64,000 nucleotides of DNA from Escherichia phage MiataMamis, in sequence record PP925834.1; one strand, 5' to 3'. Shown one piece after another: positions 34,236 to 44,284 of the stretch. The position numbers and the translations under genes were made by a program. Within the stretch, counting starts at the first letter, position 1, and each line of letters starts with the position of its first letter. The notes below the pieces were generated by a model. The model saw only the letters and a list, made by a program, of their open reading frames with translations. It ran no database searches and was not told where the DNA came from.

Positions 34236-34352
34236 GATGTTTTCCTCTCTTCTGGTTGTTGTGTGAGCACTTTTGCCCCTTCAATATAAATGTTACCCCA
34301 CCCCATGGCAGATGTCAACGGTTTTTATAGTTCTTATATGACAGGCAGGCCT

Positions 34353-34386
34353 GGTGGTTGTCTCCCCCGTCACCGGTGCCTGCCGT
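34353..34386 (-). repeat. 34-bp conserved element, copy A (inverted partner of 44251-44284)
   Basis: reverse complement identical 34/34 to 44251-44284; contains CACCGGTG palindrome and GGGAGACAAC core. Confidence 0.7.
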
Positions 34387-34444
34387 GAAACAAGTATAAC
34401 AAAAAACAGGACCATTGCAAGCCCTGTTTTGTAGTTTATAAATC

Positions 34445-34636
34445 TTATATTTTTTCGCCTATGTAGTCAGGTCGGTTTTTCTCTGTCATGCGCTTTAGCA
34501 ATTCTTGCATGTTACTTATGGCTTGTAGTGTATCCTCTTCCAGGCTTGAATCTACATAATCAGGATCGTCTATCACCTTTCTATGATTATGATAACGCAG
34601 TACTGCTAATACCTTTCTGACTTGTTCAGTATTCAT
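34445..34636 (-). CDS. hypothetical protein
   Basis: 63-aa ORF. Confidence 0.45.
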   Translation of the reverse strand: MNTEQVRKVLAVLRYHNHRKVIDDPDYVDSSLEEDTLQAISNMQELLKRMTEKNRPDYIGEKI

Positions 34637-34652
34637 TTTACATCGCCCTTAC

Positions 34653-34943
34653 TTATTGTTGGCGGTTTACATAAGCTTTACCGTTTACCGTCATCGGCAG
34701 ATCTTCCAGGTCTGGATCTTCCTTAAGGTCGCGTGCAAGCTCACCGCACCGGATACCCTCGAATCCGTAGTACTCTGTTGTACCGTCATTAAAAGTTTTA
34801 GCGGCAAGGCATAAGCGATAAGTAACCCCGATTTGATTGACGGCATGGATATCCGTTAGATCAACCTCTTTTGCCAGCTCTTTAGCCATTACAGGTGCGT
34901 TAAGTCCAACAACCAGGGCAACTACTGCGATCATCTTTTTCAT
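34653..34943 (-). CDS. small secreted protein (Sec signal peptide, two Cys)
   Basis: MKKMIAVVALVVGLNAPVMA-KE signal peptide. Confidence 0.5.
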   Translation of the reverse strand: MKKMIAVVALVVGLNAPVMAKELAKEVDLTDIHAVNQIGVTYRLCLAAKTFNDGTTEYYGFEGIRCGELARDLKEDPDLEDLPMTVNGKAYVNRQQ

Positions 34944-35034
34944 TGTGTCTAGCCTCTTTCCGCTACGTTTAAGGCGGCGGTAACCGCCTGTTTATGCTTT
35001 GTTGGTTAATTTTCAGGTATCGCTATAAATTAAA

Positions 35035-35250
35035 CTATGCTGTACGCTCAACTATAACAACGGTTTGGGGGATCTCACCTTCCACCACTATCAAGGCTTT
35101 TTTCTGCGTGATGGATATCTTTACCCGTTGCAGTGTGGCGGTGAAGTCTTTCATTTCGTCACGTGGTGTTTTAGTGCAATGCCAGATCTCAGGCTTACCT
35201 ATTTGCAAGCCGCGTAAAAATTCTGTTTTGCCTGTTTTGTTAGTGATCAT
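35035..35250 (-). CDS. hypothetical protein
   Basis: 71-aa ORF. Confidence 0.45.
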   Translation of the reverse strand: MITNKTGKTEFLRGLQIGKPEIWHCTKTPRDEMKDFTATLQRVKISITQKKALIVVEGEIPQTVVIVERTA

Positions 35251-35407
35251 TTGTTACACCTTAACCGATACCGTTGGAAGATAGGATCATGTTAGCCAGA
35301 GTCGCAACCACTCCAACCGATAACACCAGGCCCACTATTACAACCGTGAAAATTTTCTCTAACATGATTCTACCCTCATTGATGGGCGTTACTGCCCCGC
35401 TTATGGT

Positions 35408-35644
35408 TTATTGATTGATGTCATAATGAAAGTTATTTTCTTCAGTAGCTTTTAAAATAAAAGCCGTGATCGCTTTCGTGTCTACTTGTTCGAACGTATC
35501 AGAATAGCACCAATAATAATCATCCCCTACTTTCGGCGGGTAAACCTGGACAAGGAGATCGCCACCTGGTTGATCTATAATCTCAACATGCAAGCCGGAT
35601 GATTCAGCGGTTTTAACGGCGGTTAATACTGTTGCAATACTCAT
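35408..35644 (-). CDS. hypothetical protein
   Basis: 78-aa ORF. Confidence 0.45.
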   Translation of the reverse strand: MSIATVLTAVKTAESSGLHVEIIDQPGGDLLVQVYPPKVGDDYYWCYSDTFEQVDTKAITAFILKATEENNFHYDINQ

Positions 35645-35724
35645 AATCTTTTCCTTTCCGATGTGGGGGCGTTGCCTTATTGCCCCGCCCTACGAAATAC
35701 ATTCTATCAGATAACAGATTATCG

Positions 35725-35910
35725 TTAAGATTTATTTTTTACTTCCCAAACGGAAAATTCACTACCTATCGGGAGCATTCTTTTAATCTTGTTTGCTGCC
35801 GCTACCAGATCCACGGCTTGCACTGTAATAATATAACCAATTGTCGAGGCTGTTGCGTTGAAAGTTTTCATTATATTATCCTCTAATCCAGGCCGCCCTA
35901 CGTGATACAT
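35725..35910 (-). CDS. hypothetical protein
   Basis: 61-aa ORF. Confidence 0.4.
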   Translation of the reverse strand: MYHVGRPGLEDNIMKTFNATASTIGYIITVQAVDLVAAANKIKRMLPIGSEFSVWEVKNKS

Positions 35911-36197
35911 CTTACACTATTTGAAAATGTTGTCAAACTATTTTAACGATAATCATCATATGCTTTATTTACCTGGCGAATATAACATTCAAAAGCCAGA
36001 TCAATAGATTCATATTCACGGATATATTCACCATAGGAAACCACGTACATCTTTATAGCTTCCTCATATGCTAGGAGAATAGAATCTAACCCTACGATCT
36101 CAGTCTTTGCAATAATAGCCATGATTTTTATCCTCTTTGTGGTTGGTGGGGCTTGTTGCCCCCTTTGATTTATATATTACAGTCTTATATGGTCATG

Positions 36198-36431
36198 TCA
36201 ACTATTTTCAAAAAATTTTTCTGCTGTGATATTCTTCCCGGTGGGGTTCGCTACTTTTAAAATTTTATCATGCACTGGACGCCCAAAAGAATAAGATCCG
36301 TATGCAGTAAACCAATAATCGCCGTCAGGTTGTACTATTACCGCCGCATATGGTACGCCTTTTTCGTTTTTGCTGACAAAATAGATCACATTGCCATTAA
36401 TAGCCTCAGCGCGTTTAATTTGTTCCATCAT
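36198..36431 (-). CDS. hypothetical protein
   Basis: 77-aa ORF. Confidence 0.45.
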   Translation of the reverse strand: MMEQIKRAEAINGNVIYFVSKNEKGVPYAAVIVQPDGDYWFTAYGSYSFGRPVHDKILKVANPTGKNITAEKFFENS

Positions 36432-42587: not shown

Positions 42588-42632
42588 GTTTACTTTATTG
42601 ATGGCCCTGGCGTCAAGGCCATCTAAAAATAA
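42588..42632 (-). promoter_or_regulatory. conserved ~45-bp intergenic element, copy 3
   Basis: one substitution (GGCGTCAAGG) relative to other copies. Confidence 0.5.
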
Positions 42633-42634
42633 AT

Positions 42635-43030
42635 TTAGTAAGTTTTCAGTACTTTCCCGTCCAGTCTGTCAAGCTGGATCTCGATAGCTGCAGAAAACCT
42701 ATTATAAACCACATCGCCCATGGAGTCCAGCCAATCTATGACGTTATACACCTGCTCTTTATTCTTGCAAGTCCGGATCCGTTTCATTACGTAAGACGGA
42801 TCAATATTAGCGCTCTCGTTGTTGTGGTCATGCGCCTGGCCTGCTGCATTAGTTATAGATTTTACAACCACCTGAAAGGGCTTTAAGGTGCCTTTTGCGT
42901 TCATCTCACGCGCTTTTGCGGCGCGGTTGTTATATGTTACACAACGGCGGCAAATGTTGACTAAATGCATATCAATAATTTTTTCATCATTTGCCAGCTC
43001 ATTCATGATGCGACGAATATTTTTATTCAT
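42635..43030 (-). CDS. hypothetical protein
   Basis: 131-aa ORF. Confidence 0.5.
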   Translation of the reverse strand: MNKNIRRIMNELANDEKIIDMHLVNICRRCVTYNNRAAKAREMNAKGTLKPFQVVVKSITNAAGQAHDHNNESANIDPSYVMKRIRTCKNKEQVYNVIDWLDSMGDVVYNRFSAAIEIQLDRLDGKVLKTY

Positions 43031-43120
43031 AATGGTTTCCTCTCTTTCTTGGTGTGGCGGCTGAGTATCAACCGCCTTTGATGCTTAGTTTACTCGAAAT
43101 CTGCAACCTGTCAATGATTT

Positions 43121-43519
43121 TTATTCGTGGGCGCATGTTACAATGTGCTTTTTATAACCCAGGTGCACCGCCAAAGCAGATAAAAATTCTTCTTCATTGA
43201 TCCAGCCGTTGGCAGTGATACCCATTGCACCTAGTGCGCTTTCAAGGGCCGCATTAGCCTTATCATAACCATACCCGCCAGCCTTGCCGCCAGCATAACC
43301 ATAATTATTGTTCTTGCTGTCGTGCATCCAGAAAACACAGTAGTGAGTGTTACCACTAGCGGCGGCGTAATACCGGATCTCTGCTACTTCGTGCAAATTA
43401 TTATCATCGTCCAGGCCTACCAGGTTATAAGCCTTATAGAATCCACGATCACGGCGGCAGTTCTTGACATCAGAAAAAGAAAAGTCTGCATTATCAAAAT
43501 TAAAGGTAGTGGTTTTCAT
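43121..43519 (-). CDS. hypothetical protein
   Basis: 132-aa ORF. Confidence 0.5.
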   Translation of the reverse strand: MKTTTFNFDNADFSFSDVKNCRRDRGFYKAYNLVGLDDDNNLHEVAEIRYYAAASGNTHYCVFWMHDSKNNNYGYAGGKAGGYGYDKANAALESALGAMGITANGWINEEEFLSALAVHLGYKKHIVTCAHE

Positions 43520-43583
43520 GATTTTATCCTCTTAGTGTCTTTTGTGCTTTTAGTGTATTTGGTGTCGGACTATATGTCAATAC

Positions 43584-43781
43584 TTATTTTTTATTAAACC
43601 AGTGGTTGATCTGACCTTTTGTCAGGGCGCAACGATTAAGCTGTTGCAGGGTATAGCTATGACCGCGACGAAATTTATAAAGGCCTTGCCCGTTGTTGAT
43701 GGTTACGTCTACCTGGCAAACCATTTGATCGGTGACCACCTGGCGAGCGTTGCGACGTGCTTTGATTCCGTATACGTTCAT
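43584..43781 (-). CDS. hypothetical protein
   Basis: ATG after AAAGAGGA RBS. Confidence 0.4.
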   Translation of the reverse strand: MNVYGIKARRNARQVVTDQMVCQVDVTINNGQGLYKFRRGHSYTLQQLNRCALTKGQINHWFNKK

Positions 43782-43862
43782 AATGTTTTCCTCTTTGCTA
43801 GTTAGTGCGGCGTTGTTCACCTTGTAGGGAAAGAATACCAGGATTAACCAGGTTGTCAATAA

Positions 43863-44033
43863 CTATTTCAAATTATTTTTAGGGTAGAATTCACCAGCGG
43901 CGGCCCCTGCAGCCTCAACCATCATTTTTTCATAGTTCAACCAGTTGACCAGGGCATCACGCGCCGCTTTCTCACGTCTTGCATCGATATCTTTACTGTT
44001 CACTACGATATCTTTTTTATCTTTACCTTTCAT
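43863..44033 (-). CDS. hypothetical basic protein
   Basis: ATG after GGGGAGGAAAA RBS; track ORF extends into promoter region and is probably too long. Confidence 0.4.
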   Translation of the reverse strand: MKGKDKKDIVVNSKDIDARREKAARDALVNWLNYEKMMVEAAGAAAGEFYPKNNLK

Positions 44034-44206
44034 TTTATTTTCCTCCCCTTGTTGGGTATCTCTTCTTCCTGATTCTTTTATACTACTTCCCAGGGCCTGG
44101 CGCAACCATTTTATAACTTTCCTCCCTGGTCCGGTCGGACATACCAGCCTGGCCCCGCCAGGCTGCAGCGGTTGGCGCACCTGGTTAGAAAATTTTTTGA
44201 AAAAGT

Positions 44207-44235
44207 GTTGACAGCGGCCCCGCCAGGTGGCATAA
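44207..44235 (+). promoter_or_regulatory. strong extended -10 promoter driving plus-strand transcription into ORF-free island
   Basis: TTGACA-N17-TGgCATAAT; GGCCCCGCCAGG occurs at 44160 and 44215. Confidence 0.6.
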
Positions 44236-44250
44236 TGCACTCATCGAAAG

Positions 44251-44284
44251 GACGGCAGGCACCGGTGACGGGGGAGACAACCAC
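44251..44284 (+). repeat. 34-bp conserved element, copy B1
   Basis: ACGGCAGGCACCGGTGACGGGGGAGACAACCACC, about 10 nt downstream of predicted start of 44207 promoter. Confidence 0.7.

Follow-up and report, generated by a model that had tools for sequence, protein, structure and literature searches.

A perfect inverted repeat in Escherichia phage MiataMamis belongs to a family of GC-rich promoter-proximal hairpins conserved from Vequintavirus to Nankokuvirus

The genome of Escherichia phage MiataMamis (PP925834.1), an rV5-like phage (Vequintavirus), carries a perfect inverted repeat whose arms lie about 9.9 kb apart on either side of a block of small minus-strand genes. The question raised by this arrangement is whether the pair bounds a segment that recombines or inverts, or represents two sites for a common regulator or RNA element, both of which had been put forward in an initial annotation made from the sequence alone. 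The repeat itself stands. Within the window analysed here (the whole stretch of 64,000 nt), a recount returns a 34/34 reverse-complement match, and the judgement that chance was an unlikely origin is borne out by an expectation of about 1.4e-11 such pairs. No other exact inverted repeat in the window is as long (the runner-up has 18 nt), and the match grows to 53 nt at 85% identity if mismatches are allowed. The first arm sits where it had been placed (34353-34386), whereas the second, given as 44251-44284, matches once the range is shifted by 1 nt to 44252-44285; the block between them, credited with about 25 genes, holds about 27 small minus-strand open reading frames (26 annotated genes in the corresponding block of the relative isim). 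The 34-base repeat is formed by two of three paralogous copies, A, B and C, of a GC-rich element of about 50 nt (Table 1), and these copies belong to a previously undescribed family of GC-rich hairpins located just past host-type promoters. The original observation is partly confirmed, and its interpretation partly supported.

Table 1. Features of the two loci in the MiataMamis window (coordinates refer to the window)
Feature	Coordinates	Strand	Description
Promoter next to copy A	34290-34318	-	TTGACA, 17-nt spacer, TAACAT; immediately follows copy A
Element copy A	34336-34387	-	Imperfect GC-rich hairpin, GAGACAACCACC in loop and 3' shoulder; aligned with 10 relatives
Promoter P_A	34393-34420	-	TTGCAA, 16-nt spacer, TATACT, preceded by TG
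Terminator-like hairpin	34403-34430	-	Loop contains the P_A -35 hexamer
Promoter P_B	44208-44236	+	TTGACA, 17-nt spacer, CATAAT, preceded by TG; 11/12
Element copy B	44251-44302	+	34-mer at 44252-44285; from the covariance model
Fur-box-like palindrome 1	44304-44326	.	AAATGAGAACGGTTATCATTATC, 15-16/19 against GATAATGATAATCATTATC; conserved
Promoter P_C	44352-44379	+	TTGCTT, 16-nt spacer, TGaTACTAT; read by eye from the sequence
Element copy C	44385-44436	+	Hairpin GGGCA..CCGG, loop GAGACAAACA, then CCGG..UGCCC
AT-rich stretch	44437-44560	.	27% GC
Fur-box-like palindromes 2 and 3	44440-44460, 44469-44489	.	Inside the AT-rich stretch
Conserved small hairpin	44500-44518	.	TAATTAGCACGCTAATTA; inside the AT-rich stretch
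Iterons	44559-44759	+	Three direct 62-74-nt units, GAAAATCC..GAAAACGAAAAACAGATCGAGTAC
Second repeat cluster	44926-45040	.	ATCCATTTT x3, highly conserved; right edge of the non-coding region

A profile search of the 64 kb finds exactly three copies of the element (E = 3.6e-8 for C, 2.3e-7 for A and 8.3e-5 for B), which a covariance model also placed, at 34336-34387 (-), 44251-44302 (+) and 44388-44436 (+). The third copy had been noticed before as a partial one; it exists, but it is the strongest of the three in the profile search and the one that is conserved across genera. In all copies the hairpin is imperfect and GC-rich, with GAGACAAnCACC across its loop and 3' shoulder; followed by (nnn)CCUGC, this sequence makes up the near-invariant core of the family. 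Copy A is the compact hairpin originally described, with GGCAGGC at 34344-34350 and GCCTGCC at 34378-34384, and over its nucleotides 1-34 (from 34386 to 34353) it matches copy B exactly. At locus B the same arms had been read as split by about 120 bp. The GGCAGGC arm is indeed found there (44255), but 120 bp is the gap between two cores; this 5' arm has no such partner of its own, the nearest GCCTGCC (44421) being that of copy C, about 166 nt away start to start, and the 3' arm proper to copy B, GGGGATGGGCG, pairs poorly with it. An Rfam scan of the whole window gave zero matches at the gathering score, and E-value searches of both loci returned chance-level hits only (E of at least 0.4, with scores far under gathering).

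The proposal of a common regulator or RNA-element site pointed in the right direction, since the copies share a position relative to promoters and are conserved far beyond MiataMamis. Each of the three starts at about +1 to +10 from the predicted start of a sigma-70-type promoter, every clear family member has a -10-like hexamer on the same strand, 25-40 nt ahead of its core, and in almost all lineages the GC-rich segment begins right at the predicted +1. The -10 hexamer of P_A ends 6 nt ahead of copy A, and the non-homologous cassette (TTGACT..TATTCT) that replaces P_A in other Vequintaviruses keeps the identical 6-nt spacing. Terminator-promoter cassettes such as that of P_A are typical of, and abundant in, the early region; the next promoter precedes the gene at 33963-34235, and copy A has just three genes and a single terminator downstream. 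P_B is the sole plus-strand site scoring at least 10/12 within 44-64 kb and is kept in 8/8 relatives. P_C, which scores 8/12 plus TGn and falls under the threshold of the promoter scan, is kept in all Vequintaviruses having copy C and has a counterpart in nepoznato (TTGCTT-N16-TATTCT). P_B and P_C stand in tandem, and B- and C-type copies oppose all neighbouring genes: no ORF lies downstream of either promoter, both look onto opposing genes over 20 kb, and neither a terminator nor a defined 3' end was found beyond B or C.

The family is conserved from the Vequintavirus of E. coli through the Nankokuvirus of Pseudomonas (KPP10, PAK_P3). It is also found in Phapecoctavirus, Seunavirus, Mydovirus and uncultured phage contigs, and the motif is present in KPP10, PAK_P3 and unrelated IMG/VR contigs alike, with synteny to KPP10 gp083 maintained. 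In phages of Klebsiella, Proteus, Cronobacter, Pectobacterium, Erwinia and Salmonella, the C region keeps about 80% conservation, and the remainder of the query does not align. Matches in bacterial genomes were rejected as family members, being chance matches within coding DNA. The order and orientation A(-), B(+), C(+) is constant in eight Vequintaviruses and in members of three other genera.

The perfection of the A/B match has a more recent and local origin. Of the 105 phage records that carry the B 34-mer, 104 have it at 100% identity, and in none of these relatives is there a second copy, so the perfect pair is peculiar to the MiataMamis genome. Because B is invariant and single in the relatives, the 34-nt identity reflects a recent, short conversion tract from B into A. 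In a near-identical IMG/VR contig B and C are unchanged (L025), yet A is an ordinary one (L012), and copy A of the window retains its A-type flanks. Copies of the element do recombine, as seen in this conversion and in a B x C deletion in AlexBoehm, and the repeat is both perfect and inverted, as expected of the crossover sites of site-specific inversion; short inverted repeats likewise surround a multi-kilobase segment in the Hin/Gin/Cin systems. On these grounds A and B might be crossover sites for inversion, or another programmed rearrangement, of the 9.9-kb block. The segment between A and B, however, does not invert. The comparison of related genomes called for in the initial annotation shows all relatives examined to be collinear, with the order of the three copies kept and the block in a single orientation, and a flip would leave about 27 early genes facing the wrong way for their promoters and terminators. 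Unlike in Hin/Gin/Cin, there is no orientation polymorphism, the perfect pair is restricted to MiataMamis and an invertase gene was not found: Pfam and PHROGs searches detect no recombinase domain in 19 ORFs in and beside the block, the largest block ORFs included. The suggested recombination or inversion boundary is thus unsupported, and a programmed rearrangement, largely refuted already, must be considered extremely improbable.

B/C-type copies head a conserved non-coding module, located 8-13 kb from the genome terminus, that comprises palindromic boxes, an AT-rich stretch and iterons, all of them kept in 8 Vequintaviruses. Judging by their sequence, the palindromes appear to be Fur-box-like: sites at 44308, 44438 and 44444 agree at 14-16/19 with the Fur consensus (GATAATGATAATCATTATC, or TGATAATnATTATCA in its 7-1-7 form), and the window contains 12 sites of at least 14/19 against 3.5 in shuffles, the best three (15-16/19) adjoining B and C. 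The iteron core TCGAG(T)ACC also occurs in KPP10/PAK_P3, and related iterons lie downstream of the element, in constant orientation, in these phages and in three further loci (L011, L029 and L007); L011 and L029 have like-built units (GAAAA.., then TCGAGACC or CTCAAGACC). Nepoznato presents four tandem boxes followed by AT-rich repeats. The module has three direct repeats adjoining an AT-rich region, as iteron origins do, and P_B and P_C lie upstream of the 27%-GC stretch, as the promoters of a transcription-activated or RNA-primed origin would. Pfam and PHROGs searches identify no known domains in the proteins flanking the element, and no candidate initiator for the iterons emerged.

Several lines of evidence bear on whether the element acts as RNA. 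The RNAalifold consensus of the sense strand has 99% of cells paired, and four of its pairs vary by G-U wobble alone (C-G to U-G, U-G to U-A), changes that become A-C mismatches on the opposite strand. In a covariance-model alignment of 29 distinct copies, which is fitted to the structure and whose sequences are mutually related, the paired share of cells is 85.9%, where shuffles give 81.0 +/- 0.8 (0/500), double changes are seen at five pairs when 1.6 would be expected, and slid controls reach 29-54% pairing. Cognate arms also out-pair non-cognate arms (p = 0.012). On the other hand, single-sequence folding is unexceptional (z = -0.6 to -1.9; +0.78 for KPP10), no double compensatory changes occur within Vequintavirus, and pairing is poor in B copies and in several distant copies (L016, L018, L037 and GEC A). 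Changes of CC to GG or TG in the 3' arm are uncompensated, though they fall within an internal loop of the consensus. In the core and 3' arm the primary sequence is better conserved than the pairing, a pattern that a sequence-specific contact with DNA or RNA would explain no less well than a role of the structure.

The likeliest role of the element, which we infer only tentatively, is that of a hairpin in the 5' leader of transcripts directed into an origin-like module. Under this proposal its function would lie in the transcribed strand: host RNA polymerase, starting at P_A, P_B and P_C, would produce a nascent RNA that begins with the hairpin. The tandem P_B and P_C would fire into the conserved non-coding module, whose palindromes, 27%-GC stretch and iterons would constitute a replication origin or control region. 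The structured, G-rich leader would mark or stabilise the activating or priming transcript, its conserved loop presumably being the contact point for a conserved phage or host factor, and copy A would be a secondary unit of like kind, directed toward the terminus. A rather unlikely, if credible, alternative is a double-stranded DNA operator, with the hairpin potential being incidental. The non-palindromic core GAGACAAnCACC(n3)CCTGC, located at about +20 to +45, would then be the site at which a conserved phage early protein or a host protein silences the three promoters or acts as a roadblock to them, for instance at the switch from immediate-early to delayed-early expression. The retention of core and 3' arm in the four distant copies that pair weakly or not at all, and the ordinary folding z-scores, are consistent with such an operator. 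So are the iterons and palindromic boxes of the same module, which show that protein sites can persist across these lineages, and the report that the PAK_P3 locus is transcriptionally silent at 1-kb resolution (PMC13510664). An operator, however, does not account for variation within the genus that is wobble-compatible on one strand only, nor for arm co-variation above chance, nor for a B 5' arm that is unconserved between genera yet invariant in 104 genomes, and it has no need of a GC-rich start right at +1.

The leader RNA might instead act on the elongating polymerase or on other RNAs. The put RNAs are built of two stem-loops over some 65-70 nt, and those of HK022 (putL and putR), which are cis-acting antiterminators, resemble the element in being short, structured, sense-oriented and placed just past early, opposed sigma-70 promoters, with more than one copy per genome and no dedicated ORF. 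A linear motif with a hairpin in early leaders, copied on divergent units, is likewise seen in lambda nut (boxA plus boxB hairpin). A processivity signal of this kind, in which the nascent hairpin binds its own RNA polymerase, with or without a phage factor, and resists terminators and Rho, would let untranslated transcription from P_B and P_C run outwards for many kilobases, silencing the leftward middle genes by antisense or promoting genome entry driven by transcription in the style of T7, and would let transcription from P_A pass the terminal terminators. The abundance of terminator-promoter cassettes in the early region, the opposing genes faced by P_B and P_C, the location of the module at the inner edge of the terminal early-gene block and the known habit of early antisense transcription in PAK_P3 (PMC4933390) are in keeping with this idea. 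Yet an HK022-type put RNA was rejected on sequence and architecture: GAGACAAnCACC, at up to 3 mismatches, is not found at putL or putR of the HK022 immunity region, the element folds as a single imperfect hairpin, and copies B and C are directed into non-coding DNA, against the genes. A lambda nut site was rejected as well, for the loop is of 10-19 nt instead of a pentaloop, no boxA (CGCTCTTA or CGCTCTT(T)A) lies beside any copy, and Pfam and PHROGs identify no N-like protein among the flanking proteins. With so little to transcribe downstream of A, and no long antisense RNA annotated downstream of the PAK_P3 copy, we regard a put- or nut-like function as decidedly unlikely. Still less probable is that B, C and the leader of A are short trans-acting or cis-antisense regulatory RNAs, the loop serving as a seed that pairs with a conserved RNA of host or phage. 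Antisense RNAs typically have a hairpin at the 5' end with a conserved unpaired loop, the loop here persists in phages of different hosts, and no ORF follows B or C; but the window holds no complementary site beyond chance (one extra single-mismatch match against 0.9 expected), no terminator delimits a short RNA, and a cis-antisense role would not demand the same loop in different genera.

Returning to the proposed leader hairpin of an origin-like module, a parallel is the primary origin of T7, where tandem promoters (phi1.1A and phi1.1B) also lead into an AT-rich stretch. As with that origin and the R-loop origins oriF/oriG of T4, the module lies close to the early end of a genome whose direct terminal repeats are short (in KPP-1 the repeat is 8.3 kb from the C-type element), and a T7-like DNA polymerase is annotated in relatives ('DNA polymerase, T7 like', 9 kb away in rV5_ev156). 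In contrast to T7, the promoters are host-type, the leader hairpin is conserved, and iterons and palindromic boxes are present. Against this reading, GC skew shows no shift at 44.5 kb, no antisense or small RNA is annotated at the PAK_P3 element, and no terminator was found beyond B or C. In phage T5 an injection stop signal region lies at the inner edge of the first-step-transfer DNA; there too a repeat-rich non-coding region bounds a terminal block (about 8-14% of the genome) full of small early genes transcribed toward the end, but the T5 block is inside a 10-kb terminal repeat, against a repeat of about 0.5 kb here, and two-step DNA entry is not known in rV5-like phages. For PAK_P3, theta replication with one start site is indicated by Hi-C coverage, which is skewed from both map ends toward the centre, and an early-gene loop of 14 kb has two gene-free sequences as its anchors, the terminus among them (PMC13510664). 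The description of these anchors as 'devoid of genes and transcription' speaks against the proposed transcripts. Besides the terminus, the only gene-free gaps in the 45-75 kb interval of PAK_P3 are 50571-51014, which contains the element and iterons and spans about 13.2 kb to the terminus gap, and 73211-73479, with a span of about 10.7 kb.

These observations lead us to a broader suggestion, which we consider speculative and on balance improbable: the module of promoter, hairpin, palindromes and iterons might be an ancient control locus bounding the terminal early-gene block, serving as replication origin, Hi-C loop anchor or both, with the hairpin coupling host RNA polymerase to it. If so, this control locus would be common to rV5-like, phAPEC8-like, KPP10/PAK_P3-like and other large lytic myoviruses, and the conserved hairpin would represent a new class of nascent-RNA signal, acting through priming, processivity or anchoring.

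The window carries three paralogues of a promoter-tied conserved element, here termed copies A, B and C. The 34-bp perfect inverted repeat reported between A and B in the initial annotation is exact over its full length, with the B arm lying 1 nt downstream of where it had been placed (see table), and chance had rightly been considered an unlikely origin, since about 1.4e-11 such pairs are expected. The next-longest exact inverted repeat in the window spans 18 nt, and the match between A and B extends to 53 nt at 85% when mismatches are allowed. The partial third copy placed at 44405-44430 does exist, 134 nt after B, and is longer under the covariance model than first described. 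A profile search with the core, a conserved 12-nt motif with GAGACAA that occupies the hairpin loop and its 3' shoulder, recovered exactly three copies in the 64 kb.

Each copy sits directly downstream of a sigma-70-type promoter (P_A, P_B and P_C) on its own strand. From about 31 kb on, all genes are encoded on the minus strand, and the segment between A and B, previously estimated at about 25 small minus-strand genes, holds some 27 ORFs encoding small proteins without assigned function. The next promoter and gene come 60 nt after copy A; B and C are located in a gene-free stretch of 1 kb and their orientation opposes every neighbouring gene. Across 44-64 kb, P_B is the only plus-strand site to reach 10/12 or more, all other strong sites being on the minus strand. 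Further repeats were observed in the window. The sequence GGCCCCGCCAGG(C/T) occurs twice at P_B, where it is kept in relatives, and once more at a distance. A 64-nt cassette, present four times with up to 44 nt of exact identity, consists of a GATGGCC..GGCCATC hairpin bearing a TTGACA -35 hexamer, followed by a -10, and as terminator-promoter units these cassettes recur between the early genes. Both occurrences of a 22-nt exact direct repeat form minus-strand terminator-like hairpins.

Coordinates of the elements and associated sequences in the window and in comparison genomes
Feature	Genome or locus	Coordinates	Strand	Remarks
Repeat arms	Window	34353-34386 and 44252-44285		Reverse complement, exact 34/34
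Copy A	Window	34336-34387	-	Covariance model
Copy B	Window	44251-44302	+	Covariance model
Copy C	Window	44388-44436	+	Covariance model
P_A	Window	34420-34393	-	TTGCAA-16-TATACT; -35 hexamer within terminator hairpin loop
P_B	Window	44208-44236	+	TTGACA-17-CATAAT with TGn, score 11/12
P_C	Window	44352-44379	+	TTGCTT-16-TGaTACTAT, by our own reading of the sequence
Gene-free stretch	Window	44034-45064		Contains B and C
Fur-box-like palindromes AAATGAGAATnATTCTCATTT	Window	44304-44326, 44440-44460, 44469-44489; 31512-31532, 31628-31668		14-16/19 to Fur consensus
Iteron units	Window	44559-44759
Iteron units	L041	6530-6620	-
Iteron units	L011	1490-1560	-
Iteron units	L029	9290-9440	+
GGCCCCGCCAGG(C/T) repeat	Window	44151-44167, 44216-44232; 36473-36489		Just upstream of P_B, in P_B spacer; additional site
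64-nt cassette	Window	37668-37731, 41625-41688, 41954-42017, 42574-42637
22-nt direct repeat GCCCCACCCTTTCGGGCAGGGC	Window	48558-48579 and 59345-59366		Exact
Gene-free junction	Window	31000-33000		2 kb, repeat-rich
20-nt direct repeat	Window	32170/32401
18-nt inverted repeat	Window	32236/32370
A-type copy	KPP-1 (L169)	1540-1600	+	Degenerate core GAAATAATCACC
A-type copy	nepoznato (L002)	2813-2864	-	Degenerate core AAGATAATCACC
Fused B/C element	AlexBoehm (L168, MZ501048.1)	11132-11183
Gene-free gaps	PAK_P3	50571-51014, 62818-63738, 73211-73479		GenBank annotation, displayed 45-75 kb

The distribution of the element reaches well beyond its immediate relatives. The window region matches 247 phage records, with rV5-like phages (Vequintavirus) covering 87-91% of it at ~89% identity. 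About 20 records (MG0656xx) labelled as Campylobacter jejuni phages are ~90% identical to this Vequintavirus region, and are probably mislabelled or contaminant assemblies. In BLAST searches with both loci, only the element regions still align (~80%) in Phapecoctavirus, Seunavirus, Mydovirus, Certrevirus-like and other genera, with hosts in Klebsiella, Proteus, Cronobacter, Pectobacterium, Erwinia and Salmonella. A pattern scan of IMG/VR revealed the motif in the same promoter context in many 137-153-kb contigs, and the combination is also found in the Pseudomonas phages KPP10 and PAK_P3 (Nankokuvirus) and in unrelated 27-90 kb contigs (L007, L011, L016, L018, L029 and L037). The window gene at 42015-42356 is homologous to KPP10 gp083, and its placement relative to the element, in side and approximately in distance, is shared by the two genomes; hence, E. 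coli and Pseudomonas phages retain synteny at this locus. BLASTP of neighbouring proteins across lineages yielded one shared protein only. Contig L011 presents a mirror image of the window layout, with two tandem antisense copies facing the iterons and a third, sense-oriented copy beyond a few genes. The A-type copies of KPP-1 and nepoznato have degenerate cores and point to the terminal gene-free region, as A does in the window, and the C copy of KPP-1 has the core variant GAGTACAAAACACC. Among the matches listed in a motif scan of bacterial genomes there were only chance ones in coding DNA, Rfam gave no match at either gathering or E-value thresholds, and the element is absent from the rV5 genome paper and from the PAK_P3 RNA-seq and ONT-cappable-seq papers. 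The element represents a new family of sequences whose general type is familiar, either a structured leader close to a promoter or a component of an origin module.

The surroundings of B and C are conserved as well. An alignment of eight Vequintavirus genomes shows near-perfect blocks, interrupted by a variable stretch at 44750-44925, which comprise in order P_B, B, the palindrome AAATGAGAACGGTTATCATTATC, P_C, C, two further palindromes, a small hairpin, three iteron units and a ATCCATTTT cluster. Fur-box-like palindromes are concentrated downstream of B and C, with a further group at 31.5-31.7 kb in the other large non-coding region, and the sequence at 44437-44560 has a GC content of 27%. 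The same boxes are found after the element in Phapecoctavirus (four in tandem), Seunavirus, Mydovirus, L011 and L016 (at least four); they were not seen in the Pseudomonas phages. In nepoznato, four tandem boxes after the C copy precede AT-rich repeats. Iteron units, composed of GAAAA.. followed by TCGAG(T)ACC or a closely related sequence such as CTCAAGACC, recur downstream of the element and in the same orientation in KPP10/PAK_P3, L011, L029 and L007. The promoter-hairpin-(boxes)-iteron arrangement thus constitutes a conserved unit, and the constant placement and orientation of the iterons would imply a conserved DNA-binding protein. GC skew showed no shift at the module.

Several lines of evidence support, but do not prove, that the element forms a hairpin. 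Folding bears out the GGCAGGC/GCCUGCC stem proposed for copy A, with GGUG/CACC as a second stem, and gives GGGCA/UGCCC and CCGG/CCGG for copy C, the element as a whole adopting an imperfect hairpin with GAGACAAnCA in the apical loop. Single-sequence stability (z = -0.6 to -1.9, with one L011 copy at -3.35 and KPP10 at +0.78) is ordinary for such GC-rich RNA. The RNAalifold consensus for Vequintavirus pairs GGCA/UGCC and C(C/U)(U)GG/CC(R)GG around a ~19-nt loop, with 99% paired; four pairs vary, all by wobble-compatible single changes and none by double changes, and the 3'-arm positions that vary between CC, GG and TG lie in its internal loop. As these G-U pairs become A-C mismatches on the opposite strand, the promoter-sense strand is the one able to fold. 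In a covariance-model alignment of 29 distinct copies across genera, which is fitted to the model and contains interrelated sequences, 85.9% of cells are paired versus 81.0 +/- 0.8 when shuffled (0/500), five pairs are changed on both sides versus 1.6 expected, and slid controls reach 29-54% paired. An alignment-free test, in which the 5' arm of each copy was set against all 3' arms, also favoured cognate arms (-17.0 vs -16.06 +/- 0.41 kcal/mol, p = 0.012), with the B copies and several distant copies ranking poorly.

The perfect 34-nt identity that first drew attention to these loci has an ordinary cause. The B 34-mer is present in 105 phage records, never more than once in any of them, and 104 of these records match it at 100% identity. 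One IMG/VR contig shares identical B and C copies with the window (L025) and has an ordinary A (L012). In a ten-locus alignment, the window A retains A-type flanks, and between ACGGCAGGCACC and GAGACAA a B-type sequence replaces the usual TGGCGACGGGT(G). This pattern is most simply explained by a short tract of conversion in which the invariant B was copied into A. In Escherichia phage AlexBoehm, a B x C crossover has removed 134 nt, including box 1 and P_C, leaving a fused element with the 5' half of B and the 3' half of C that forms a near-perfect hairpin. The block had also been suggested to be bounded by recombination or inversion sites; it is not inverted in any relative examined, no recombinase domain was found in the block ORFs tested, the largest included, and programmed inversion is effectively excluded.

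The position of the block in the genome may be read from other phages. The 514-bp direct terminal repeat of Klebsiella phage KPP-1, located 8.3 kb from its C-type element, maps to the gene-free junction of convergent transcription units (PMC9862379). The window possesses such a junction of convergent plus- and minus-strand units at 31-33 kb, with many TGACA/GACATAAT and (C/T)TnTT(T/C)AC motifs, three occurrences of CCTGAAGAG and both direct and inverted repeats. Judged from the terminal repeats of KPP-1 and PAK_P3, this junction is probably the physical genome terminus, and the segment from A to B/C, given the equivalence of the junction to the terminal-repeat site of KPP-1, is probably the terminal genome block. 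In PAK_P3 the terminal repeat lies at ~63 kb and the element at 50.85 kb. A Hi-C study of this phage reports a 14-kb early-gene loop at 3 min, anchored on two gene-free sequences of which one is the terminus, and a coverage that fits theta replication with a single start (PMC13510664). The first two gene-free gaps of PAK_P3 span 13.2 kb, the best fit to this loop, and we infer them to be the loop anchors.

In the reading we favour, the element would act as the 5' hairpin of nascent transcripts, and the B/C unit would supply an origin-like control module with its transcriptional input. The unit can be likened to the T7 primary origin, with its tandem promoters and AT-rich stretch, and a T7-like DNA polymerase is annotated in relatives. 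Sequence conservation of the core and 3' arm exceeds what pairing requires, and the element could instead be a duplex operator for a conserved protein, which we deem less likely. It is more doubtful still that it acts as a put/nut-like processivity signal, letting untranslated transcription from P_B and P_C run outwards, and a seed-bearing small RNA seems the least probable of these readings.

Other identities for the 5' hairpin element were considered and rejected. HK022 putL and putR lack the motif, and reading the reverse-complement strand as a Fur-like box in a promoter with a terminator hairpin yields no convincing promoter and a U-rich tail in C only. Taking GAGACA in the core for a sigma-70 -35 hexamer followed by a -10 does not hold consistently from copy to copy, and TGGCAC..TGCA, present in some A copies, is spaced wrongly for a sigma-54 promoter. 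Neither of the small ORFs that follow B and C (MRTVIIIV and MIIIQNSK) has a Shine-Dalgarno sequence, and they overlap the palindrome. A G-quadruplex or R-loop-initiation reading fits only the Vequintavirus C, likeness to 16S rRNA helix 45 (GAACCUGCGG) is limited to a few variants, a Chi-like CCACCAGG to some A copies, and a T7 primase site (TTGTC, template strand) would explain at most 5 of the 12 conserved bases.

More generally, our results show that the dispersed short paralogous elements of these genomes undergo gene conversion and deletion. Within this part of these genomes, no other non-coding signal is as strong as the 12-nt motif with its promoter-hairpin-iteron module, which is conserved from E. 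coli to Pseudomonas phages. Phages of the rV5-like, phAPEC8-like and PAK_P3-like groups are in wide use as candidates for therapy. The conserved module behind the repeat hence merits experimental follow-up: it offers a concrete, mutable target for origin mapping, may help explain the PAK_P3 Hi-C loop anchors and allows asking whether host Fur touches phage development.
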